Assembly (NCBI GenBank): GCA_963788655.1
Contig: CAWBHS010000059.1
Span: 32,001 to 96,000, forward strand
Direction: 5' to 3'
From: an uncultured Verrucomicrobiae bacterium
GTDB taxonomy: Bacteria > Verrucomicrobiota > Verrucomicrobiia > Limisphaerales > JAFGQR01
Length of the DNA: 64,000 bases
Each line of letters opens with the position of its first letter. Positions within the stretch are counted from its first letter, which is position 1. The position numbers and the translations under genes were made by a program. Under the pieces are notes generated by a model. It did no database searches, was not told the origin of the DNA, and saw only the letters and a program-made list of their open reading frames with translations. Shown here one piece after another: positions 24,237 through 36,869 of the stretch.

Positions 24237-26315
24237 TCAACTGTGGGGAGGTGTCCACCGAAACATCATCACGTGGTTCAGACCGGCGTTTTCGAGGAAC
24301 AGGACATACTCACCGTTCTTGCGGAGGGTGACGTTCAGGGCGTTGTCCGAGTCAACGCAACCGCCGCTACCCTTGAAGCCGTTGATGTCCGGACGAATCG
24401 TGCCGACGTAGCCGCCGTCGTCCAACTGGTGGACGCGGATCAGTCCGTAGCCATAAGCGACGAAGAGGTATTCGCCGCGGGCCTGCATCGCCACCGGCGC
24501 GCCGCCGCCGTAGCCGGTGTCTGGAGTGTACGACTTATCATTGAGCGGCAGATTGATTTTCCAGTGCTTGATCCTCTTGGTCGGATCGGACCAATGATCG
24601 TAGCGGACCAGCACGTTGCACGCGTTCTCGTCCGTGCCGGGTGAACCGCCGACGATCATGAGGTCCTCACCCGGGACGTAGAATAGCCGCCGAAGCCGGT
24701 CGCCGGTGAACTCCGGCGGGTAATGGTAGGACACCTCGGAGGTCCGGCGATAGATGGGGTTGCCGCGCGGGTCAATCCCTTCGCAAGGGAGATGGAAGAT
24801 CGTCCCGTCTCCCGAGCATTGCCAGATGCCGGCCGCGGCATCCAGGTGCATGAAGCCCCAGCGGGGCTTGCGGTCCACTGCGGCGAACTCCACGGCGTCT
24901 GGCGCACCGTTGCCGTTCGCGTCGGTCCAGATGAAGGTTTCAGCGTCCTCGGGCCAGCGTTTGCCATTCCCAGGGCGCCAGGTGCTGGCACCCGCCACAT
25001 ACCCGCACGGCGCCGCCACACAGCCTTGCTCGCCGAACTTGTAGATCTCCAGGTTGCCGGTGCCCTGAGCGCCGCAGTAGAGGAAGAGATTGCCGCCGAT
25101 CCGCCGCACGCCATTGATCAGGCGATGGCTCGGACCGTGGAGGTCCGTCACCCGGCTATCACTGGGATACTTGAAGCGATCAACGCTCAGTCCAATCAGT
25201 GACTGCTCCTTACCAGGAGGCTTGTTCCAGTCCATGCTGAAGACGTTCTCCTTGGTGTAAACGAGGTTCTCATTGGCTGGGTCGGTACAGGCCGTATCCA
25301 ACCAGTTGCCCAGCCCGTAAACGTCCCAGAGGCGCTCTCCGGCTGGGGAATAGGCTTCGATCAGGGCGTTATACCAGGAGCCAAAGACACTGGCCACATA
25401 GAGATTGCCGGCCGCGTCGAAGCCGAGGCCGCGAATCCAATGGAACTTCTGGGGCTGGTATTTTCCCGGCTCGCCCGAAAAGATGCCGCCTTCCGTGCCA
25501 AAGGTGCCCACCTTCCTGGGCGTCCCCGCGACATCGTAAATCCAGATCTGGCTGTGCCGGTTCAACCCGCCCACCAGCAGTTGACCCTTCGGACCAAACG
25601 TCAGCGCACAGGGATTCTCGAAGTCGGTGATCTCCGGCCCGGGCTGACCCTGCTTGGAGAAGGAGATGATCTTCAGGCCGCCCCGATCGAACGGCTCCTT
25701 GCCGGGCTTGCCTTGAACGACCCAAATCTGACCGTTATCACCGACCGCGATCGGCCCTGGGCTCGGGGCGGCGAAGGAGCGAACCTCCTTCATCGTCGCC
25801 GTCTCCAGGACCCGGACTCTGCCTGCCTTGGAATCGCTGAGGTAAAGCTCGCCGCTGCGCAAGGCCAAGCCATGAATGCTGCCGCCGGTGCTCGGTGTGC
25901 GGTTGTAGGCTTCGTCCCCGAGGCGCGTGCGGAAGAGGCCGGCCCCGGTCCCGATGTAAACGTGGGCATCGTCCACCGCGACCGCGGATGCGCTGCTGCC
26001 AAAACCGCTGTCATAGTCGTACTTGGTGACGAACTTGCCGGCCTTATACGAGGCGACTCCGCCGTAGCCTTCAGCCACACCCGCGGAGAAAACCGTCCCC
26101 TCCGGCGTCACGGCAATAGCGATGGCGGTGACCGGCACCGATTGGTGCCCCTTCTGAGTGGCGAACGAGTTCATGAGCCAGGAATGGACGACGGTGCCAG
26201 GCAGGTCGCTCCCCGACAGGGTGTCTCCGGCTTGGACACGACTCAGGTCGAGCATGCACAGGCAGGCCAGCGCAAATTTATAGAAATGGTGTTTTCGCAC
26301 AAATATCCGGTTCAC
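24237..26315 (-). CDS. Large secreted NHL/beta-propeller protein (gene cassette)
   Basis: Signal peptide-like N-terminus, repeats such as AIAVTPEG, AVAVDD and GLGFDAAGNLYVA, and a WTDANGNG motif; bounded by att cores. Confidence 0.75.
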   Translation of the reverse strand: MNRIFVRKHHFYKFALACLCMLDLSRVQAGDTLSGSDLPGTVVHSWLMNSFATQKGHQSVPVTAIAIAVTPEGTVFSAGVAEGYGGVASYKAGKFVTKYDYDSGFGSSASAVAVDDAHVYIGTGAGLFRTRLGDEAYNRTPSTGGSIHGLALRSGELYLSDSKAGRVRVLETATMKEVRSFAAPSPGPIAVGDNGQIWVVQGKPGKEPFDRGGLKIISFSKQGQPGPEITDFENPCALTFGPKGQLLVGGLNRHSQIWIYDVAGTPRKVGTFGTEGGIFSGEPGKYQPQKFHWIRGLGFDAAGNLYVASVFGSWYNALIEAYSPAGERLWDVYGLGNWLDTACTDPANENLVYTKENVFSMDWNKPPGKEQSLIGLSVDRFKYPSDSRVTDLHGPSHRLINGVRRIGGNLFLYCGAQGTGNLEIYKFGEQGCVAAPCGYVAGASTWRPGNGKRWPEDAETFIWTDANGNGAPDAVEFAAVDRKPRWGFMHLDAAAGIWQCSGDGTIFHLPCEGIDPRGNPIYRRTSEVSYHYPPEFTGDRLRRLFYVPGEDLMIVGGSPGTDENACNVLVRYDHWSDPTKRIKHWKINLPLNDKSYTPDTGYGGGAPVAMQARGEYLFVAYGYGLIRVHQLDDGGYVGTIRPDINGFKGSGGCVDSDNALNVTLRKNGEYVLFLENAGLNHVMMFRWTPPHS

Positions 26316-26483
26316 TTTCGGTCGGAGGCAGCGTTTCCGCCGCCCAACGAATCAATATAGCCTATCCGCAGTTATTCACCGGAGGCCAGGCGCGCTCCGC
26401 GTTGCTCCGCCGCAGCCGCCGGTGAATAACTGCGCTGTCCGACATGATCACGATGATTCATACTTATTCGCATCCGTTGAATT

Positions 26484-26666
26484 GGTACCGTAGGGTATCC
26501 CGGTTTTCCCGCCTCCGTGGGCCAGGTCTGCGAACGACCAGTCGCCTGGACGACTTTGAGCTTTATCGACCGGCTCACGGGGCGGGCTTGCACCCTCTAA
26601 CGACTCCTCAGAGGGCGTTCACTGTTGCAGTGAGAACTCTCCTATATTGCCGTCGCTGGGTCAAGC
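26484..26666 (+). ncRNA. Putative IS110 bridge RNA (target- and donor-binding loops)
   Basis: Two long stems with internal loops. Loop sequences gcgaacga/ttgagctt match the attC target flanks, and cctcagag/ctatattg match the IS ends exactly (8/8 each). Confidence 0.75.
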
Positions 26667-26694
26667 CTGCGGGAAAACCACACCACCGAAAACC

Positions 26695-28032
26695 ATGAAT
26701 GATTCGACGATGAAGCACGATTATCCGTATGACCTGGTCATCGGCCTGGACCGCTCCGACGCCACGGCCGACCTGCACACCATTGACGTGCATACCAACG
26801 GCCGCACCAACCAAACCATCGCGACCAGCCCCGAAGCGCTCCATGACTGGCTGGCCCAATTGCGCCAGCAACATCCCCAAGGCCGGGTGGCGATCTGCCT
26901 GGAACAACCTGCCGCCAATCTGCTGGCCTTCCTGGAAAGCTATGCCTGGATCACCCTCTACGCCATCAACCCGATGACGTTGAAAAACTTCCGGGAAGCC
27001 TTCGTCACCAGTCGCGCCAAGGACGACACTCAGGATGCCTATTATTTAGCTGAACTACTCCTGACTCATCCCGACAAGCTGACCGTGTGGACGCCCGAGG
27101 ACAGCGCCACCCGCCACCTGCAACAAGCGGTCACGCACCGCCGCGCGGTGGTGGACGAACGCACCGAGTTGACCAACCGGCTGCAAGCCCTCTTAAAGGC
27201 TTATTTTCCGCAGGCGTTGACCCTTTGTGGCCAGGAACTGTGGCGGCCCATGGCCACCGATTTGCTCCTAAAATGGCCCACCTTGGCGGCGATCAAAAAA
27301 GTCAAACCAGCGACCCTCAAACAATTCTACCGCCAGCACAATTCCCACAGCGCTTCCCTGCTGGAGCAGCGGCTCCAATGCATTAGCCAGGCGATTCCGC
27401 TCACGGAGGAAACCGCCCTGGTGGAAACCTACGCCCTGCGCGTGCAATTGATCGGTCGCCAACTCCAATTGGTGGTCGCGGCCATTGCCACGTACGACCA
27501 GCAGATCCAGGCGCGGTTTATCGCCCACCCCGATTACGCGATCTTCAAGAACTTGCCCGGGGCGGGACCGGTGCTGGCGCCGCGGTTGTTGGCCACGATG
27601 GGCAGCGTGCGCGAGCGCTTTCCCACCGCCGTCAGCTTGCAGTGCTACAGCGGGATTGCGCCGGTGACCAAACAGAGCGGCAACACGCGGCACGTGCATC
27701 GGCGCTACCTCTGTCCGAAGTTTTGCCGGCAGAGCTTTCATGAGTTTGCGGGCAGCTCGATCCTGTTCAGTCGTTGGGCGGCGGCGTATTATTTGCAGCA
27801 GCGGGAAGCGGGCGCGAACCATCACACGGCGGTGCGGGCGCTGGCCTACAAATGGCAGCGGATCATCTGGCGGTGCTGGCAGCGCCAGGAGGTCTATGAG
27901 GAGGCGCGTTATGCCGAAGCCCTGCGGCGCCACGGCAGCCCGATCGTGGGATTGTTCGATCAGATTGAGTTAGGCAAAAATCCCTATACCAGCCGCAAGA
28001 AAAAGGCCGCCCAGCGGGCGAAGAAAAAATGA
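26695..28032 (+). CDS. IS110-family DEDD recombinase/transposase
   Basis: IGLD, CLEQ and KDDTQDA (RuvC-like DEDD); C-terminal LPGAGPVLA and YSGIAPVTKQSG, RALAYKW. Confidence 0.95.
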   Translation: MNDSTMKHDYPYDLVIGLDRSDATADLHTIDVHTNGRTNQTIATSPEALHDWLAQLRQQHPQGRVAICLEQPAANLLAFLESYAWITLYAINPMTLKNFREAFVTSRAKDDTQDAYYLAELLLTHPDKLTVWTPEDSATRHLQQAVTHRRAVVDERTELTNRLQALLKAYFPQALTLCGQELWRPMATDLLLKWPTLAAIKKVKPATLKQFYRQHNSHSASLLEQRLQCISQAIPLTEETALVETYALRVQLIGRQLQLVVAAIATYDQQIQARFIAHPDYAIFKNLPGAGPVLAPRLLATMGSVRERFPTAVSLQCYSGIAPVTKQSGNTRHVHRRYLCPKFCRQSFHEFAGSSILFSRWAAAYYLQQREAGANHHTAVRALAYKWQRIIWRCWQRQEVYEEARYAEALRRHGSPIVGLFDQIELGKNPYTSRKKKAAQRAKKK

Positions 28033-28061
28033 AAAACCCGTTGACCGTTCACCTCAGAGAT

Positions 28062-28149
28062 GAGCTCACCTATGACTGCCCCTCTACGACTCTCGAACTC
28101 GCGGAAGCGGCATCGCGGGGCAGTCATTAGGTGCAGCGCCTTGTTCGGC
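28062..28149 (-). other. attC site (split by IS110; its R' is at 26342-26348)
   Basis: Hairpin gctcacctatgactgcccc...ggggcagtcattaggtgcagc-gcctt-gttcggc with an extrahelical base in L''. Confidence 0.85.
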
Positions 28150-28299
28150 GATCCCGCGTCGTCCGTGGCTGCTCTCAAAGCAATACTCGATGACGTTCGT
28201 GCTGTCCCAGGACAACGAGATAATCATGGGAGATACCGCCTGCAAATATCTCGGTGATGACGTGTTACGGCACATCGTCGCAGCGGTGAACGCCTATTC

Positions 28300-28408
28300 G
28301 CCGAACGTGGAGGTCACCGACCGGCAGAAAACCAGAAAGGAAACGGATGCCAAACAAACATGAAACTGACACGCAGGCAGCCGGTTCGCGTGAACCGATT
28401 GGTTCGGT
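28300..28408 (-). other. attC site
   Basis: gccgaac..ggtcaccgaccggc...gccggttcgcgtgaacc..gttcggt; R'' matches the next core at 28592. Confidence 0.8.
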
Positions 28409-28591: not shown

Positions 28592-28687
28592 ACCGAACGC
28601 CAAGAGGACCGATGAGCGGCACCCCGAAAACGTTCGAACTGTAAACTGACGCGCTTGCCGCTCATTCGGTCGCTCGATTGGTTAGCT
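28592..28687 (-). other. attC site
   Basis: accgaac..gaggaccgatgagcggca...tgccgctcattcggtcgctc..gttagct; closely related to the attC at 32753. Confidence 0.85.
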
Positions 28688-28948
28688 GATCGCATTATAA
28701 AAGGCATAAATCATCCACAAGGTCAACATCCCAGCTATAGCACCTGCAATCTTGTCCGCACCAGACTTCCGGAATAAAGCCACCGCCGACATGGCCAAGC
28801 ATAGAAGCAAACTGATCGAACCCACCGCCCAGACGTAATGCGGAATCGGCCGACCATTTGCAGGAGTCAAAGCGGGAAGAAATACTCCAGCAAAAAGTGC
28901 CATAATGATCGCGCTGATTCCTCTCCAAGATGGGATGTAGGCCGCCAT
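28682..28948 (-). CDS. Small 3-TM membrane protein (gene cassette)
   Basis: 88-aa hydrophobic ORF whose stop lies in the attC R''. Confidence 0.7.
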   Translation of the reverse strand: MAAYIPSWRGISAIIMALFAGVFLPALTPANGRPIPHYVWAVGSISLLLCLAMSAVALFRKSGADKIAGAIAGMLTLWMIYAFYNAIS

Positions 28949-28958
28949 AATTCTTTAG

Positions 28959-29775
28959 ACCGGGTAGGCGTAGGCGGTCACCCGCCCACGCCCCCCTAAG
29001 AACCGGACTTGAAAGTTTCCCTTCATCACGGCTCAAGCCTCTCCAAGGCCACCCCGGATGCGGGGGACCCGCGTAACCAGGAGGCCGGTGACACCCAAAG
29101 GCGTCATGGACCTTCCCAATCCCACTTGGCAATACCGGTCGGCGGCCATATCGCGCTCGGCTCCTTTGGGCCGCAGCACCGAGAGGCACCAAGCGACGGG
29201 CGTCGCTCGTCCTATGCTTCTCTCGCTTGAAGGGGTTCCGCTGATTTTCTTGCCAGGAGACACCAGATCGACGTGGGCATATCCGGTCCATTACCGACCG
29301 GCCTTGGCTTGTTCGATCCTCTTCATGCTGCCTCCCCTGGGCCTGCCTTGCGGTCGGCTTGCCTGGATACTCTCCAGGCGGGAACTGGCAGCTTTTCCAT
29401 GTTCCGCATTCTCCACAGGATGGGTTAGGTCCACTCTCTACACCGGCGGTGCGCCATTCGCGTCGGGCTACGTTAGACAGCCCGAACCTGACCGCTGGCC
29501 TTGTTTTGGCCGGAGCCTTAAAACAGCCTCGTTTGGCTCGTTCCTCTGACGATGCTTGCAAGTGTTCACATGGGTTGACCCTACCATCCGATTCTAGCGC
29601 CGCACCCGGATTGAGGCTCCCAGGCTGGCTACATTGTCGGGAAGGCTTCACACCCTGGACAGTAGCCTTGCGGCCGCCCGTCCAACGCATGCTTCCCTGG
29701 AATACCTGCCGCGAAAGGCAGGACTGAGTCAGGTTGCCCATGCTCAGCAGTGATGAATGCGACTTCATGTCACAA
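28959..29775 (-). mobile_element. ORF-less group II intron inserted in attC core
   Basis: 5' ttgtgacatgaagtcgca; domain V gagccgtgatgaagggaaactttcaagtccggttc; domain VI ending ctacccggt; EBS1 CTAACG in a stem-loop at 29463-29485; no RT ORF. Confidence 0.88.
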
Positions 29776-29899
29776 CTAACGCCGAGATGACCGACAGCTT
29801 TGGGAGCGCCAGCCTCGACTGGAATTATCGGTTTCAAGTTTCATGGTCGATGTCCGCTGCGAGGCGGGTGGGCTGTTCGGTCAATCGACATGGTTGGAC
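29774..29899 (-). other. attC site (R' core interrupted by intron)
   Basis: ctaac..gatgaccgacagc...gctgttcggtcaatc..gttggac. Confidence 0.8.
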
Positions 29900-30402
29900 A
29901 TTTCATTTGTCCAGTCACTCTACCAAGAATGTCCTCACGTGGTAAAGCGCCCCAGTAGCGGCTGTCCAGTGCGTTTGTCGTATTGTCGCCCAGCAGGAAA
30001 TATGAGCCTGCCGGCACCCGATACGGATACGTAATGGAAGGCGAATGACGGGGTGCGATGTAGTGAATGCCAGATAAACGCGCAGGCGGCTCTTGCCGTT
30101 GTCCATCTATGTAAATGGCGTCGTCACGAAATTCCAGTTGCTCGTTTGGCAGGGCGATGACCCGCATTACCCAGAAATCCTGAGCGACTTTTCCCGGCGC
30201 AGGTGTGGGATGAAACACGATGACATCCCAGCGGCTGGGCGCAGCCCTCTGGTAGGCTGCCATGTCAGCTACGACGACTTCATTTGGCTGGATCGTCGGT
30301 GACATGGAGGTACTGCTCTGCCGAAAGCTCGCGCTGCGAGTCCGAACATCAGACGAGAGCCGATAGCAACAGCAGAATCGATGGAAAATAGATGCGTGTC
30401 AT
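29841..30402 (-). CDS. Signal peptidase I (S26)-like protein (gene cassette, frameshifted ends)
   Basis: SMSPTI, RWDVIVF, VMRVIALP and YFLLGDNTTNALDSRYWG. Confidence 0.85.
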
Positions 30403-30404
30403 GT

Positions 30405-30497
30405 GTCCAACGCTCCGGCTCACCGACGCCGGGCCAATGATGTCCGATTGTCAACCGAGACGCGATCCCGGCGTTCGGTGCAGCCGGCTTGTTGGAC
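30405..30497 (-). other. attC site
   Basis: gtccaac..gctcaccgacgccggg...cccggcgttcggtgcagc..gttggac; near-identical to the attC at 33387. Confidence 0.92.
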
Positions 30498-30501
30498 GCC
30501 T

Positions 30502-30913
30502 TCATTTCGTCTTCAAGTCCTTCGGTTCCACAACTTTGATGACAACGAAATACCGGTAAAACTTCCAGCCAGCCTGCGGCCGGGTCACTTCCCTACCTTC
30601 CTCTTTGGCGGCCTGCTCGACCGCTGGCGGCGTACCGATCATCCTTCCCATCTCGTACCCGCGAAAAATGCAGCGCGCGTTTTTGGGCAAGGAATCCACA
30701 TTGTCCACTGCAATATCGACCGGGCTATCCAGCTTCTTGCCATTGAGCATATCCACGCGCAAGGTGCGTCCTGCGTCACTTCGGTCCTTCTACCCGGACA
30801 CCTTGAATGGTCAGGTACGTGCCCAGCGGATGGCCGAGCCTGCCAGCGGGAATGTCTTGGGCATTCGCGAGGCTGACGCCGAAGACCAGTAAGAATAGAA
30901 GTGCGGTCTTCAT
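30502..30913 (-). CDS. Secreted hypothetical protein (gene cassette, frameshift ~30775)
   Basis: MKTALLFLLVFGVSLANAQDIPAGRLGHPLGTYLTIQG joins ORF 30502-30762. Confidence 0.65.
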
Positions 30914-30922
30914 TGTTCTTTC

Positions 30923-31048
30923 GTCCAACGCTGCGCCTCACCTACTGCCGCCGGGGAGGCAGGTGGAGCGCAAACATAATAATGAAATTCTCCCAAGCTG
31001 CCGAGCGGAAAGCGCGGGCGGCGGTTAGGTGCAGGCGCCTGGTTCGGC
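30923..31048 (-). other. attC site
   Basis: gtccaac..cctcacctactgccgcc...ggcggcggttaggtgcagg..gttcggc. Confidence 0.88.
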
Positions 31049-31051
31049 ATT

Positions 31052-31414
31052 CTATTGCAGCAGCGCCTCATCGAAATGGAATGGGCAGTAGGCTGACCCC
31101 ACGAGCGCCAGCTCTGAACAACCAGCGCGCTTACAGCTCTCGGGTCCTCGGTCGTTTGAGCGAGGTGGCACGGCGTTCGACCTGATCTTCTGTGCGACCA
31201 GCCACTTCCTTAACTCCGCCAATATTCGGTGCTGGGCGTCTCTGGGAATCTCTGCACCCGACGCCCACGAACGGAGATCCAACGGAGCTACCAGCACATC
31301 GTATTCTGGTGAACCAGACATTTCCCAGTTGATGTCGGTAACATTCTGGCCATCACTGCAACGGATGCTCCCGGCCCGACCACGGGCATTCATTGTAAAG
31401 CTGTAGCTATTCAT
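31052..31414 (-). CDS. Hypothetical protein, possibly immunity-like (gene cassette)
   Basis: 120-aa ORF between att cores with C-terminal CxxxxC...CxxH; resembles the cassette 33496-33801 pattern. Confidence 0.65.
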   Translation of the reverse strand: MNSYSFTMNARGRAGSIRCSDGQNVTDINWEMSGSPEYDVLVAPLDLRSWASGAEIPRDAQHRILAELRKWLVAQKIRSNAVPPRSNDRGPESCKRAGCSELALVGSAYCPFHFDEALLQ

Positions 31415-31435
31415 TGGGCAGGCCTGCCAACTTTT

Positions 31436-31561
31436 GCCGAACGCCAAGCGTGAGCGACCGCCGCTGAGGAGCACGGTGGTAAGCAAACGGCCCGTCCGAA
31501 TTCCCGCCCGGCATCGAGCGGACAGGCGGGGCGGCGGTTCGTCTCCACGCGCTGGTTGGGC
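31436..31561 (-). other. attC site
   Basis: gccgaac..gcgtgagcgaccgccgc...gcggcggttcgtctccacgc..gttgggc. Confidence 0.85.
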
Positions 31562-31571
31562 GCTTTGCTCA

Positions 31572-32018
31572 TTTAAATGCTTGGATGTTCTCAGCCACGA
31601 ATCGATGCAAAATCGGTTCCAAGTCGAGATTGCTACAGTTCGTCATCGAGCTTATCGAGGGCTCCTCTTTGCTCCGGCGTCAGGTTTCTCCGATCGCCAT
31701 GTATTCATCCAAATCCTCCGGTGGCTCGCCGTTAGGAAACACTCTCATTGCTTCCTTAAGAATTTCGGCATGGCGAGTCGCGCCGACGCCAACCAATCCT
31801 GCATAAGCATCTTGGAGCGGGACTGCTGCCGCATTGCCGAACCATCCCGCAAGCCCATTAATGCTCACGTTACGACGGAAATCGTAAGCGCACCAAAAAT
31901 GAAACTCCGCATCGCTTTCAACACAAGGCATTGCGTCGAGAGCGTTCATTAATACAAGCAAAGCGCTATCGCTGTCCGGTTCCTGCAATATCTTGTCGAT
32001 GTCGTATGGTTTCGGCAT
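31572..32018 (-). pseudogene. DUF4375/DMP19-like protein (gene cassette, frameshifted 3' part)
   Basis: NVSINGLAGWFGN...AYAGLVGVGATRHAEILKEAMRVFP.G.PP pattern; acidic tail in a shifted frame. Confidence 0.65.
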
Positions 32019-32049
32019 CGGCCTTTCGCTTGTCCTTGAGTGCTGATCG

Positions 32050-32150
32050 CCCAACGCCGGACTGACTAATCGGCGATGGGCGAGCACGTCAGGAACCAAC
32101 TCGAGCCAGCAGTCAATTTCATGCTCGCGTAATGCTCCTGATTTTTGGCA
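32050..32150 (-). other. Degenerate attC site
   Basis: R' gcccaac matches the R'' at 31555; the distal half is poorly conserved. Confidence 0.5.
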
Positions 32151-32696
32151 TCATCCAGGGTGCATGCAATGCGCGGTTGCTCCCGTCTTGGTCGGCGATA
32201 TCCGGAGAGGCGCCAGCTTCCAACAGCGCTCGAACCATGTCCGCATGCCCCCTGTAGATGGCATGGCACAAAGCCGTCCCATGTCCAAAAACACAATCAC
32301 GTTTACTCCGGCGGCCAACGCCCGCTGCAAGAAGAGAGCAACCTTTCCGGTGCGCGCTGCCGAGCTACAGGTCCTTCTCTCCTGCAGGACCTTCTCAGCC
32401 TGCCGGCATGTGCCCCCCCTCGCTTGAGTAGCAAAACCATTTTCCTCATTACTTAAAGGTCTCGCGCAAAATCTCTAGGGTTCAACTTCGGCATTGGCGG
32501 GGTTGAGTTCAGCGCCCTCCTCGACGAGACACTCGACCGCTTCCGTATCGCGGCGCATAACAGCGTCCATCAGTGGCGTATGACCATCCGCATTCACAAG
32601 GTTCGGGTCGGCACCATCTGATATAGCTGCTTTAATATCGGCGACAACGCCTCGCCGCAATGCAGCGGCAAGTCGGCTTTAGCGGATTGGTTCATA
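32150..32696 (-). pseudogene. Ankyrin-repeat protein remnant (gene cassette)
   Basis: GADPNLVNADGHTPLMDAV...VECLVEEGAELN and a later GATALH fragment; multiple stops and frameshifts. Confidence 0.7.
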
Positions 32697-32752
32697 AAAG
32701 GCTATGGCTTGGTCGGATCTCTTGGAGTAACCTTTGATGCAGGCATATTAAT

Positions 32753-32843
32753 GCCCAACGCCAAGGACCGATGAGCGGCACCCAAACCGCCTGAATTTCA
32801 AACTGACGTGCTTGCCGCTCATTCGGTCACTGATTGGCTCGAC
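32753..32843 (-). other. attC site (R'' mutated gttcgac>gctcgac)
   Basis: gcccaac..ggaccgatgagcggca...tgccgctcattcggtc; paralog of the attC at 28592. Confidence 0.8.
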
Positions 32844-32844
32844 A

Positions 32845-33358
32845 TTTCGTCATTTTCTATTGCGATACCTGCTCCCAATTCCAACTCCCGACAACCAATC
32901 GCATCGTCTCGCCGTTGCACGTCACCACCACGGGCGGTCCGAGGCGGTAAAGGCCGTTCGCATGATCGTAATTCAAACCGATGCCAAGTCTGCGCCACGC
33001 TCGATCTCAAAAGGATAGCAGGCGTTGAGCGTCAGTGCCTCTAGGCCGACCGTAAAGTGTATTACAGTGGCAGAGAGCATCGTACCGCAGAAAGCATGGA
33101 GGCTCCAACATCACTGTGCCCTCGCGGGACTTGCCTGTGCTGCTGGAACCGTCCGACGCTGCCTCCGGCCCCTTGTTCCCATCGCAACTCTATCATACTT
33201 CGGCTGTTCGCGCTTCAATCTTCAGGTTTAGTACGCGACAGCCAGGGGCGTTTACGACTTCCACCACCGTAAGGCGAAATGAGTCCTCCGGGGGAGGTTG
33301 TGCGGCGTGTAAGCTGAAGGCAATGTGCAAGAATGCTGCAACTGGATATGATCTTCAT
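32845..33358 (-). pseudogene. Disrupted secreted hypothetical protein (gene cassette)
   Basis: Signal-peptide-like start MKIISSCSILA followed by broken frames between two attCs. Confidence 0.45.
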
Positions 33359-33386
33359 AGCTATAAATGCAATACGTAACGTGCTT

Positions 33387-33479
33387 GTCGAACGTCCCGG
33401 CTCACCGACGCCGGGCCAACGGTGTCCGATAGTCAACTGAGACGCGATCCCGGCGTTCGGTGCAGCCGGTTTGTTCGGC
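33387..33479 (-). other. attC site (first cassette)
   Basis: gtcgaac..gctcaccgacgccggg...cccggcgttcggtgcagc..gttcggc; R'' matches the attI core. Confidence 0.92.
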
Positions 33480-33941: not shown

Positions 33942-35027
33942 ATGACCATGTCAAATCAAAATGACGATAATGGGGAGAAATTTTCAGCCGCTTCCGGGGA
34001 TTCCCAGCGCCACCGTCCTACGGGCAAAGCGGCCCATGGCACGCCCCCGCCTTGGGTGCGCCGGCTGTTTGCCGCCCGGGGCCTGGTGCTGCAGGAGCGC
34101 CAGCTTTATTGGTATGGCGTTCATTGGGAACGGTAACGGAGGTATTTGGAATGGGTGGGGCGATTTCTGGCCTGGCGTGGGGCAGGGTCGCTGGCCGAAG
34201 TGGAGACGCTGGATATTCGGCGTTACCTGGAGACCCTGGCGGTGGAGCGAAGGGTGAGCGCCAGCACGCAAAACCAAGCCTTCAGCGCGCTGCTCTATTT
34301 TTTCGAACAAGGGTTGCACCGGCCCTTGGGGGACTTGAAAGGGACGCTACGGGCCGCCCCCAACCGGCGGCTGTTTGTGGTGCTCAGCCGGGAGGAAGTC
34401 ACGCGTTTGCTGGCGGCGCTGGCGGGGACTTTTAACCTGATGGCGCGACTGCTCTACGGTACGGGCATGCGACTGATGGAATGCTGCCGGCTGCGCGTCA
34501 AAGACATCGACTTCGAACGCGGGCAAATCGTGATCCACGAGGGCAAGGGAAACAAAGACCGGGTGGTGATGTTGCCACAGAAGCTGGCCAGTCCGCTCGA
34601 ACAACACTTGGCGCGGGTCAAGTTGTTGTTTGATGCGGATCGGCGGGCGGGCCTGCCTGGGGTTTATCTGCCGGGCGCGCTGGAGGCGAAATACCCCAAC
34701 GCGGGCAAGGAATGGATCTGGTACTGGGTGTTTCCCGCCAAAAACCTCAGTGTGGATCCGCGGAGCCAAGTGCGTCGCCGTCATCATGTCCATGAGAATG
34801 GATTGCAAAAGGCCGTTCAGAGTGCGAAACGCCTGGCAGGAATCCCCAAGCGGATTGGCTGTCATACCTTAAGGCATTGTTTTGCCACCCATTTGCTGGA
34901 GGCGGGAGCCGATATCCGAACCGTGCAAGAGTTGCTGGGGCATGAGAGCGTGGAAACCACGATGATTTATTTGCACCTGATGCAGAAACCGGGGTACGGC
35001 GTGCGCAGCCCGTTGGATCAGGAGTAG
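33942..35027 (+). CDS. intI: Integron integrase IntI-A (in-frame TAA at 34134-34136; catalytic part 34146-35027 intact)
   Basis: [18 protein letters not shown], the IntI-specific patch [23 protein letters not shown]...[14 protein letters not shown] and LLGH..VETTMIY. Confidence 0.92.
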
Positions 35028-35904
35028 CAAGAGCGCGGAATGGTGCGCCGGGCTTACGGAATGGCAACCGTTTCGGTTTATCCGGCGACGATGGGACGGC
35101 CAATTCCGAACGCCAATGGCCACCATTCACTTCCCCGATTAAGCCGAGCGGTTGGCTGCCGCCGACTTCCCCGAATGCCATAAATGCAGTTTCGCCATTA
35201 CCCTCCGCTGGCACCTCAACTTCTGCCGCCGGGGCCGGGGCGAGGTCACTCATGACTCGGCCCGCGACTTCATCGCCTGGGCCCAGGCCCACAAACAGCC
35301 CGAACCCTGGCAACTGGAAAGCTGGCGCGAGGCCATTCGCTGGTTTTTCCGCGCCGCCAAGGCCGCTCAGGATCGAGCCAGTTCGACGGCGTCGGCCCCC
35401 TCACCCCAGCCCTCTCCCCCGGTGGGGGCGAGGGAGCCGGAGGCTTCAGAAGCCACCCCAACTTCGGCGGTGCCCGCCTGGAAAACGGCCTTTCTGACCG
35501 TCCTCCGGCGCCGGCACTATTCGTATCGGACCGAGCAGAGTTACCTGGTTTGGCTGGAACGCTTTGCGCGGTTTTGCCAGACCGAAGACCTGGAACATCG
35601 GGGGACCGAGGACATCAAAGCGTTTCTGGATGCCCTGGCGCTGGACCAGCGATTGAGTGCCAGCAGTCAACGACAGGCGTTGAACGCAGTGGTGTTTTTG
35701 TTGCGCGAGGTCTTCGGCCAGGAACTGGGAGATTTTTCTGATTACCGTCGCTCGCGCTTGCGGCCGCGCGCCCGGACCTGGCTCACCCGCAACGAAATGG
35801 AAAAGCTGCTCGAGCAATTGGAGGGCGAAGGGGATTGGGCCTTGATGACGCGTGTGGCCTTCGGCGGGGGCTTGCGGCTGACGGAGTTGCTGCGCTTGCG
35901 GGTT

Positions 35905-36188
35905 CACCCCGTGAGATAACCGATCATGTCAACCTATTGCTACGTGTATGTTCTGCGTTCAGCCAAGGACGGTCAGTTTTACGTCGGCCTGACCAGAGAC
36001 CTACGAGCGCGGCTTCAAGCGCACAACCACGGACAGGTTCCCTCCACCAAAAGGCGCGCCCCGCTGGAACTGGTGTATTGGGAGGGTTGCCTCAACGAAG
36101 GCGATGCGGCCCAGCGCGAGAAATACCTGAAGAGCGCGTGGGGGAAGCGCTACATCAAGAATCGTTTGAAACAATATCTCACGGGGTA
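35905..36188 (+). mobile_element. 284-bp inverted-repeat-bounded insertion carrying a GIY-YIG gene
   Basis: Perfect 13-bp IR accccgtgagata (35906-18) / tatctcacggggt (36175-87); removal restores cgg gtt aag gac = RVKD. Confidence 0.9.
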
Positions 36189-36189
36189 A
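35926..36189 (+). CDS. Stand-alone GIY-YIG nuclease (UPF0213/SLX1-like)
   Basis: [26 protein letters not shown]...STK...PLELVYWE...A..RE..LK. Confidence 0.92.
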
Positions 36190-36869
36190 AGGACGTGGAT
36201 TTGGAGCAGGAAATCACCACCGTGCGCGCGGGCAAAGGCGACCGGGATCGACTGGTGCCGCTGGCCCATGTAACGGTGGACGCGTTGCGGACGCACTTGG
36301 CGGTCATTCGTCAGCTTTACGAGGCGGACCGCCGCAAACAGGTGGCCGGGGTGTGGTTGCCCGAGAGCTTGGCCCGCAAATATCCCAATGCCGGCAAGGA
36401 ATGGCCGTGGTTCTGGCTCTGGCCCGATGACCATTTGAGCACCGATCCGCGCAGTGGACTGAAGCGGCGGCATCACCTCTCGGACCGGCTGTACCAGATG
36501 CGCATCAAGGAGGCAGCGCAGCAGGCGGGATTGAACAAGCGGGTGACGCCGCACGTGCTGCGGCATTCCTTTGCCTCCCAATTGCTGGACCGGGGCACCG
36601 ACATTCGAACGCTGCAAGAGTTGCTCGGGCACAAGAGCGTGGAAACCACGATGATTTACACCCACCCGATGCGCAAGCCGGGCCTGGGCGTGCGCAGCCC
36701 GCTGGATCAGGAGGAAGAGGGTTGAGGGTTGTTGGTTGAGCGTTGAGGGACCAGCCCGCCGATAAAGTGACAGCTTGAAACTCGACCGAGCGTTCGTTCG
36801 GACCGGACCATGCGCGCTTCGCCAGCGACGGTTCGATGGAAACTTCTGCCTGTGGGGCGATGGCGTGCG

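Follow-up and report, generated by a model that had tools for sequence, protein, structure and literature searches.

The 64,000-nucleotide (nt) stretch of DNA analyzed here, referred to as the window (positions 32,001 to 96,000 of contig CAWBHS010000059.1, assembly GCA_963788655.1, from an uncultured Verrucomicrobiae bacterium), very probably carries, within an attC site of a chromosomal integron, an intact insertion sequence of the IS110 family, together with its own bridge RNA that appears, from the sequences of its loops, to be aimed at the end of attC in which the element lies. In window coordinates, the element and the two pieces of the site that it splits comprise the following parts:

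26356..28063, + strand: insertion sequence of 1708 bp, TATAGCC ... CCTCAGAGATGA, with limits revised from sister copies, invariant ends and an empty paralogous site at locus L035
26342..26355, + strand: left piece of the split attC, with R-box GCCCAAC at 26342-48 (R' when the attC bottom strand is read), spacer GAATC and target core AA at 26354-55
26356..26368, + strand: left end, with the right-donor sequence TATAG at 26356-60, part of a -10-like TATAGC (26356-61), and, at 26359-68, the left subterminal repeat AGCCTATCCG
26695..28032, + strand: recombinase gene (tnp) for a protein of 445 amino acids (aa), its domains being DEDD (RuvC-like) and Tnp, the latter with the catalytic Ser in GIAPVTKQSG
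28041..28063, + strand: right end, with a -35-like TTGACC at 28041-46, the right subterminal repeat CCGTTCACCT at 28045-54, the left-donor sequence CCTCAGAGAT at 28052-61 and the donor core GA at 28062-63
28064..28150, + strand: rest of the attC, with the right target GCTCAC (L' side), an imperfect palindrome, GGTGCAGC, spacer GCCTT and GTTCGGC at 28144-50

Both the domains and the catalytic D-E-D-D/Ser residues of the recombinase place the element in the IS110 family, as does the presence, in a non-coding end, of an RNA with two loops complementary to target and donor. The protein matched PF01548 (DEDD_Tnp_IS110; 92.2 bits, cutoff 29), PF02371 (Transposase_20; 55.9 bits, cutoff 21.3) and the NCBIfam model NF033542, 'IS110 family RNA-guided transposase' (163.3 bits, cutoff 140). 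Because a single-sequence phmmer search with the recombinase found no match among PDB sequences, a family profile was needed for the structural comparison, and the profile of 26 relatives matched both IS621 (8wt6, E = 1.1e-10) and ISCro4 (9t56, E = 1.1e-11). In the profile alignment to 8wt6, residues D19, E70, D111, D114 and S328 stand opposite the catalytic D/E/D/D/S of IS621 (motif pairs iGlD/IGID, clEqp/CIEAT, akdDakDa/KTDTVDA and tkqSG/YESG); among the 26 relatives, D19, E70, D114 and S328 never vary and D111 hardly does. The initial annotation of this region, made from the letters of the window alone, had described an IS110-type element with a long non-coding region on the 5' side of its gene, and this description holds, with 339 nt preceding tnp (26356-26694) and 31 nt following it (28033-28063).

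The window element belongs to what is apparently a large and undescribed group in Verrucomicrobiota. Of 8,000 candidates scored in a protein search, 4,325 matched at E <= 0.001; the top 120 were 59-74% identical and lay mostly on contigs of 1.4-4 kb. A genome scan yielded 43 related loci (43-75% identity), 34 of them from metagenome-assembled genomes (MAGs) of Verrucomicrobiota. The insertion sites of these loci resemble that of the window: 30 of 34 left junctions consist of AACG followed by 3-7 nt, and among the 36 right flanks of at least 90 nt that were scored (3 of 39 were too short), an inverted repeat begins within 3 nt of the junction in 29, with more extra bases in the distal arm in 25 of these and in the proximal arm in one, and with GTT following in 22. 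In L012, L032 and L039, a close IntI homologue is encoded downstream in the orientation of tnp, an arrangement also found in the window. Since junctions, arms and strand are shared, the whole clade inserts at one attC position and in one orientation, a point that the initial annotation had put forward as a check. Its assignment of the insertion to the R'-L' arm of attC likewise agrees with the extra bases in the distal arm of the window site and with the position of intI, to the right on the + strand.

The limits of the element were taken as 26356-28063 because sister copies, the 39 invariant right junctions and the empty L035 paralogue agree on them. Sister copies within one genome (L004/L005, L001/L006, L012/L013, L014/L021 and L019/L036) are alike from TATAGG inward and diverge at the 2 nt that precede it. 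On the other side, all 39 right junctions are constant through CAGAG-xT/G-GA (GTGA in 36, ATGA in the window and L025, GGGA in one), and variation begins directly after GA. The empty attC at L035:7539 reads GATCCAAA|GCTGAGC, with nothing in between, and is of the same type as the filled site of that locus, GATCCAAA|TATAGG...GGTGA|GCTGAGC; further examples of empty attCs, oriented alike, are GCCTAAC-GACCAA-GCTCAGC and GCCTAAC-GTCCAGA-GCTCAGG. Among 33 loci the left core is AA in 21, GA in nine, AG in two and TA in one, and the right core is GA in 39 of 39. Judged from these alignments, each junction appears to hold one 2-nt core, the left AA derived from the target and the right GA from the donor, with the element itself running from TATAG to GTGA. 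In IS621 the top strands are cleaved 3' of the core (passages in PMC11208158), which predicts left target, target core and left end at one junction and right end, donor core and right target at the other, and hence a variable left core and a constant right core, as observed here.

These junctions also bear on an alternative delimitation, proposed in the initial annotation, in which an element at 26353-28061 is bounded by a duplicated AT core and the guides flank that core without covering it. AT is indeed present at both window junctions, it likewise stands close behind the left AACG of L025 (the sole other copy with ...CAGAGAT), and removal of 26353-28061 leaves a 6-nt R-L spacer like those of the empty attCs of the window. 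We nevertheless regard this delimitation as improbable, for the following reasons: (i) at that place 36 of 39 right junctions have GT and one has GG, with no matching GT or GG needed on the left; (ii) the supposed left-end CAA varies in sister copies, being GAA/CAG in L001/L006 and CAA/AGA in L004/L005; (iii) the GA that follows AT or GT is constant in 39 of 39 loci, and the bases beyond it vary and covary with the right target guide of the RNA described below; (iv) the empty L035 paralogue reads ...CCAAA|GCTGAGC; and (v) the revised empty site, GAATCAA, resembles the natural L002 spacer GAACCAA. At up to 3 mismatches, the window contains no further copy of the empty site reconstructed in the initial annotation. 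The two AT dinucleotides are thus where they were reported but probably do not form the core, comparison with sister copies placing AA on the left and GA on the right of the window element, and the boundaries move from 26353-28061 to 26356-28063.

Upstream of tnp, the non-coding end encodes a structured RNA with the following parts:

26367..26434, + strand: conserved 5' hairpin with a 16-bp stem, cgcagttattcaccgg / ccggtgaataactgcg, from the alignment of 29 sequences
26507..26586, + strand: target-binding stem-loop, with the left target guide (LTG) GCGAACGACC+AG at 26530-41 and the right target guide (RTG) UUGAGC at 26556-61, followed on the + strand by a core-binding UU at 26562-63 and a handshake-like UAU at 26564-66
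26587..26666, + strand: donor-binding stem-loop, with the left donor guide (LDG) CCUCAGAG at 26606-13 and the right donor guide (RDG) CUAUA at 26642-46, followed on the + strand by a core-binding UU at 26647-48 and a handshake-like G at 26649

The segment 26480-26680 folds into two stem-loops with internal loops (minimum free energy of -90.7 kcal/mol, z = -4.65), a stability reached by none of 200 shuffled sequences (mean -70.99, standard deviation 4.24). The 5' non-coding regions of 32 loci could be aligned to that of the window, and 29 sequences made up the alignment of the two stem-loops, whose consensus contains 39 pairs; 15 of these change on both sides, compared with 3.2 +/- 1.3 in shuffles (0/500 reach this number) and with 2-5 in slid controls, and 97.3% of the cells are paired. 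The covariance model built from this alignment matches the window once, at 26500-26672 (164.6 bits), with no second copy of the RNA elsewhere in the 64 kb. Folding and covariance thus recover the two stem-loops outlined in the initial annotation, which had not mentioned the conserved hairpin at 26367-26434. This hairpin has 17 consensus pairs, nine of them with compensatory changes. IS621-type RNAs start with a 5' stem-loop (passages in PMC11208160), and the hairpin probably plays that part in the bridge RNA transcript; a transcript stabilizer or a protein site are other possibilities.

Three loci show irregularities in or near this region. In L014:3753-3958, the target-binding loop is interrupted on its 3' side, immediately ahead of the RTG, by a 32-nt insert that forms a small hairpin (CCGCC...GGCGG). 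In L009:620-680, a sequence identical to the element's own 5' hairpin precedes the left end, and in L025 the first ~19 nt of the left end are tandemly duplicated (L025:3600-3660); the oddities of L009 and L025 could reflect insertion into another copy or an assembly artifact.

The strings on which the initial annotation based its pairing scheme all lie where it had placed them: gcccaacgaAT at 26342-52, caatatag at 26353-60, gcgaacga at 26530-37, ttgagctt at 26556-63, cctcagag at both 28052-59 and 26606-13, ctatattg at 26642-49, TTGACC at 28041-46, and AT at 28060-61 immediately ahead of gagctcacc. Of the two loops, the first corresponds to the target and the second to the ends of the element itself, with 8/8 positions for each of the two donor matches of the window copy. 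On both strands of the window CCTCAGAG occurs three times (1.45 expected) and CAATATAG twice (0.31 expected); one copy of each lies at the element ends and one of each in the same internal loop, a joint coincidence that, judged from these rates, is far beyond chance.

The revised limits give the guides a register that fits the rules of IS621, in which the core is included in the guides and handshake guides follow (passages in PMC11208160 and PMC11208158). Read in this way, the RTG 5'-UUGAGC pairs with GCTCA(R/C), the next UU with the core AA, or with GA by wobble, and the (U)AU after it with (G/A)T at positions 6-7 of the right end; in IS621 it is the target-loop handshake guide that pairs with donor positions 6-7 (passages in PMC11208158). 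The RDG 5'-CUAUA pairs with TATAG, its UU with the core, and the next G with the last C of the left target. The LTG, C[U/G]AACG[A/U]CC+AG, has the same sense as the left target and core (AG versus AA, GA or AG, one wobble). The core is thus covered by the UU of the RTG, the UU of the RDG and the AG of the LTG, and the view that the guides leave out the core gives way in the revised register. The match of ctatattg to the left end stands as well, with a changed meaning: the RDG corresponds to the right-donor TATAG plus the target core plus one target base, which explains its exact complementarity to caatatag.

Covariation between guide and target, which the initial annotation had suggested as a test, is present for the RTG and its right target (RT). 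Across 28 loci they form 134 Watson-Crick pairs, compared with a permuted mean of 118.2 (0/20,000 permutations reach the observed value), and across 15 unique pairs 70 compared with 59.0 (5/20,000). The TGAGC guide stands beside GCTCA in 16 loci and beside ACTGA, GCTCG, GCTGA and GCTTA in one each; TGAGT stands beside ACTGA in three of four loci and beside GCTGA in the fourth; TGACC is found beside GGTCA in 3/3 and TCACT beside AGTGA in 1/1. Written as RNA, the variants GAGCU, GAGUU, GACCU and CACU thus lie beside GCTCA, ACTGA, GGTCA and AGTGA. On the donor side, the RDG and the left end show compensatory changes in L025 (CGAUAU with TATCG) and L027 (CCAUAU with TATGG). For the LTG and its left target (LT), a guide base A after AACG accompanies target A in 12 loci, C in three and T in two, and a guide base U accompanies target T in five, A in three and C in two; in these counts L008 and L017 were misread, both actually having ACC after AACG.

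The same data weigh on the possibility that a protein reading the attC structure, or the type of attC present in the host, sets the insertion preference, with the 5' structure acting as a mere leader or regulatory element that resembles attC by ancestry or chance. The target is highly conserved, so that most guide-target identity is uninformative, the covariation of the LTG is weak, and the RTG is similar to the natural attC pairing partner of L'. Even so, this possibility is very unlikely: RTG and RT covary site by site in four guide classes, the RDG and the left end change jointly in L025 and L027, and the architecture, order and strand rules are those of IS621, for which guiding was shown experimentally (passages in PMC11208160). 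Moreover, ISEsa2, a relative with another target, carries GAGCGAGA in the equivalent loop, equal to its own left flank plus core.

Several observations weigh against an intact, RNA-guided attC element: (i) the LTG-LT signal is weak, with 49 three-nucleotide identities compared with 42.6 (232/20,000 permutations), and it is not significant on unique pairs (4265/20,000) or when anchored at the core (2445/20,000); (ii) four of 34 left junctions depart from AACG (L009, L016, L019 and L027), and in 11 of 30 attC-type left flanks, that of the window included, the spacer is 1-2 nt longer than the guide; (iii) the right end never varies and so offers no covariation with the LDG, and the LDG of most relatives, CUC-N-AGAGG, has one extra nucleotide relative to the invariant CTCAGAGG and stops before positions 6-7 and the core, which the LDG of IS621 does not; (iv) the window copy fits its own site imperfectly (LTG 6/8, RTG 5/6), and in L008 the RTG GAGC beside ACTGA forms 3/6 pairs; (v) the subterminal repeat of the window copy is degenerate, AGCCTATCCG and the reverse complement of CCGTTCACCT agreeing at ~5/10 positions; (vi) no circle or tandem junction (CCTCAGAG, 2-9 nt, TATNGG) was found in 44 loci; (vii) Rfam has nothing matching 26000-28400 at E <= 1; and (viii) the Tnp tree, built from 18 of 33 relatives and with two of 14 inner branches well supported, neither joins nor separates the variant guide classes and so gives no count of independent guide changes.

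Some of these points could also mean that the window copy is a stranded, immobile relic, which we consider unlikely and which would be compatible with RNA-guided attC targeting by the family as a whole. Its subterminal repeats match at about half of their positions, compared with 9/10 in the 10-bp family consensus (AGGTnATCCG / CGGATTACCT, or AGGTcATCCG / CGGATtACCT), it is the single copy in 64 kb, it fits its own site imperfectly, and 15 of 33 relatives were dropped from the Tnp tree, 13 for in-frame stops in tnp and two for too short a match. Against this, the 445-aa open reading frame (ORF) is intact with all catalytic residues, the RNA has kept its stems and reaches 164.6 bits with the family model, and both donor guides match the element's own ends at 8/8 positions, so that ends and guides have stayed matched despite ~35% protein divergence from relatives. 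The 13 relatives with in-frame stops within the tblastn extent of tnp (L006, L008, L015, L017, L019, L025, L026, L028, L030, L032, L035, L036 and L039) could be decayed copies or could reflect long-read assembly errors, several of them sharing one MAG series.

The host site itself is an attC by its R-boxes around an imperfect palindrome with extrahelical bases and by its place in an array adjoining intI. Its boxes, GCCCAAC and GTTCGGC, fit RYYYAAC ... GTTRRRY except for the fourth base of the latter (C, R expected), and its arms pair over 19 nt, with two extra bases in the distal arm and the proximal arm starting at 28064. Extrahelical bases mark the R''-L'' arm of attC; the location of the two extra bases in the distal arm, and of intI to the right on the + strand, identifies the + strand as the bottom strand of attC. 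The element sits in the L'-R' spacer, antisense to the cassettes, and intI is divergent from them. The remainder of the integron is composed of:

28594..33479, + strand: remainder of the cassette array, with attC-like sites at ~28594-28690, 30405-30497, 30924-31048, ~31430-31560, ~32755-32845 and 33387-33479
34146..35027, + strand: integron integrase gene intI (TIGR02249, 391.4 bits, cutoff 265; PF00589 and PF13495)

Sites were sought by motif-plus-stem scans and arm alignment, all but 30405 and 33387 being identified by visual inspection. Cassette genes occupy the - strand, for example that of an S26 peptidase at 29841-30305. The other GCTCACC-type attCs of the window, 30405 and 33387, carry CG at the core position, which may explain why they are empty. 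A second class of attC-like site, at 28594-28690 and 32755-32845 (..AACGCCAAG..GACCGATGAGCGGCA...TGCCGCTCATTCGGTC..), is nearly identical between its two members and differs from the GCTCACC/GGTGCAGC class that the element occupies. On the far side of the split site, the gene for a 692-aa NHL-repeat protein (24237-26315, - strand) begins 27 nt beyond the R-box; since the window scans found no attC-like site to the left of this gene, the element may occupy the last attC of the array. Directly downstream of intI, a second integrase-like gene at 35152-36725 (+ strand) consists of the overlapping ORFs 35152-35919 and 35835-36725, which score 112 and 224 bits against TIGR02249 (cutoff 265) in its N- and C-terminal halves, respectively, and is probably a frameshifted tandem copy of intI.

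Starting from the anatomy, RNA structure, position, orientation and covariation described above, transcription, circle formation and catalysis may be pictured as follows. The 5' side of the target loop (CGAACGACC-AG), whose sense is that of the conserved attC R-box end (YYNAACG-NCC-RA), and its 3' side (UUGAGC-UU), which can pair with the adjoining L-box strand (RA-GCTCAR), would together guide the recombinase to the site, and the donor loop would read the right end CCTCAGAG and the left end TATAG across the circle junction; handshake-like contacts would join AU to (G/A)T of the right end and G to the last C of the left target. The element would leave as a circle whose junction is predicted to read CCTCAGAGAT-GA-TATAGCC, and this junction would rebuild a promoter with TTGACC, then 17 nt, then TG-n-TATAGC; a promoter scan of the integrated copy found no sigma-70-like site. 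RNA and recombinase would then be produced, and their complex would recombine the junction with another attC having an RA core beside GCTCA. Insertion would leave the R' crossover box detached from the remainder of attC, so that cassettes may become fixed where they are.

There is about an even chance that these elements represent a Verrucomicrobiota-wide bridge-RNA lineage that specialized on the L'-R' end of attC independently of the attC-specific IS1111 elements, with degenerate sites defined by structure, U-rich and wobble-tolerant guides, a GA/AA core mismatch, an IS110 layout combined with an IS1111-like repeat, and immobilization of cassettes as a consequence. The mechanism is the known bridge-RNA one; novelty resides in which end of attC is targeted, in the clade and in how widely it is spread. 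The value of the finding is that of a new clade with a new target, documented in a well-resolved natural data set, with no new principle involved. It adds a second, unrelated and apparently abundant lineage at the opposite end of attC in environmental chromosomal integrons, and this recurrence suggests that attC is a repeated safe harbor for RNA-guided elements. For bridge-recombinase engineering, the clade offers natural examples of G-U-wobble guides for degenerate sites, of recombination between unequal cores, and of handshake-type positions far from IS621.

Among characterized systems, IS621 of the IS110-group bridge-RNA recombinases (Durrant 2024; Hiraizumi 2024) is one of the closest, its guide function having been shown experimentally with the same two-loop architecture, order and strand rules (passages in PMC11208160). 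The window element shares with it the following traits: (i) a DEDD enzyme with a catalytic Ser, the family profile matching 8wt6; (ii) an RNA located 5' of the gene, in the order 5' stem-loop, target loop, donor loop; (iii) left guides in top-strand sense and right guides in antisense; (iv) an RTG and an RDG that span the 2-nt core and are followed by positions fitting handshake guides; and (v) end sequences, a -35 on the right and a -10 on the left, that would build a junction promoter. On the other hand, the window protein has 445 aa compared with 328 in 8wt6_A, with similarity at the profile level only, and the non-coding end measures ~339 nt compared with the 177-nt RNA of IS621. The family further differs in that its core is RA and may be unequal in donor (GA) and target (AA), in that its guides are U-rich and need G-U wobbles, with an LDG that falls short of the core, and in its 10-bp subterminal repeat and its targeting of integron attC.

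ISEsa2 is the closest named relative: in plasmid records, of which 1,314 matched and none reached 60%, aa identity to it is 38.5-39% across 91% of the protein. ISEsa2, ISCfr13, ISCps4 and ISCps5 were taken as one group, their ISfinder names coming from the supplements of PMC11187229 and PMC11208160, and the cluster 'ISCfr13;ISCps4;ISCps5;ISEsa2' of Durrant et al. is given as spanning 'Multiple Phyla'. The ISEsa2 copy compared here (L044:630-860 and 2110-2140) is on a Klebsiella plasmid, beside nickel-resistance genes. Like the window element, it has a 5' non-coding end, of ~240 nt (TATAG at ~636 to the coding sequence at 871), and, as read by eye, a left end TATAGTCATTCG, a right end ...CGAATGTCTCAGGGCGTGA, a subterminal repeat, a GA core, and the loop sequence already mentioned. 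It differs in that the target of this copy is not attC, in that its RNA is not detected by the covariance model of the window family, and in that it occurs on Enterobacterales plasmids, not in Verrucomicrobiota integrons. Given its TATAG... and ...GTGA ends and GA core, the module of RA core and TATAG donor seems ancestral to a wider clade.

Other mobile elements are known to target attC. Group IIC-attC introns do so, also antisense to the cassettes (passages in PMC3001079), but, being retroelements, they carry a ribozyme and a reverse transcriptase, lack a DEDD recombinase and insert near the 5' end of attC. In the literature found, attC targeting by insertion sequences is described only for the IS1111 group; a full-text search returned no IS110-type, 5'-RNA element with this target, although the Durrant supplementary tables, partly covered by the search, may list the clade. 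The attC-specific IS1111 elements (ISPa21, ISPst6, ISKpn4 and ISPa25), a monophyletic subset, are likewise IS110-family members, insert near the 5' end of attC and, as does the window element, lie antisense to cassette transcription (passages in PMC3001079). They are, however, guided by an RNA (seekRNA) from the non-coding region 3' of tnp (passages in PMC11187229), whereas the structured RNA of the window element is 5' of tnp and its 3' end has just 31 nt, and the window family occupies the 3' (L'-R') end of attC, in the arm without extra bases. Membership of this group was considered and rejected on the 5' RNA, the 445-aa length, ISEsa2 as nearest relative and the opposite attC end. According to the parts of PMC11187229 drawn on here, IS1111-type transposases have 330-350 aa, the motif GL-P----S(t)G and subterminal repeats of 11-13 bp, while the IS110 subgroup has 395-455 aa, the motif G--P----SG, a longer non-coding region upstream of tnp, and subterminal inverted repeats that are absent or short and imperfect. 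By its upstream non-coding region, 445 aa and GIAPVTKQSG, the window element falls in the IS110 group; the 10-bp subterminal repeat of its clade is an IS1111-like trait and a departure from the IS110 type, and the clade may therefore sit between both groups. ISEsa2 is ~15-17% identical to ISPst6, ISKpn4 and ISPa21 in an identity matrix, and this low identity, the 3' seekRNA and the use of the other attC end make attC targeting by the two lineages look convergent.

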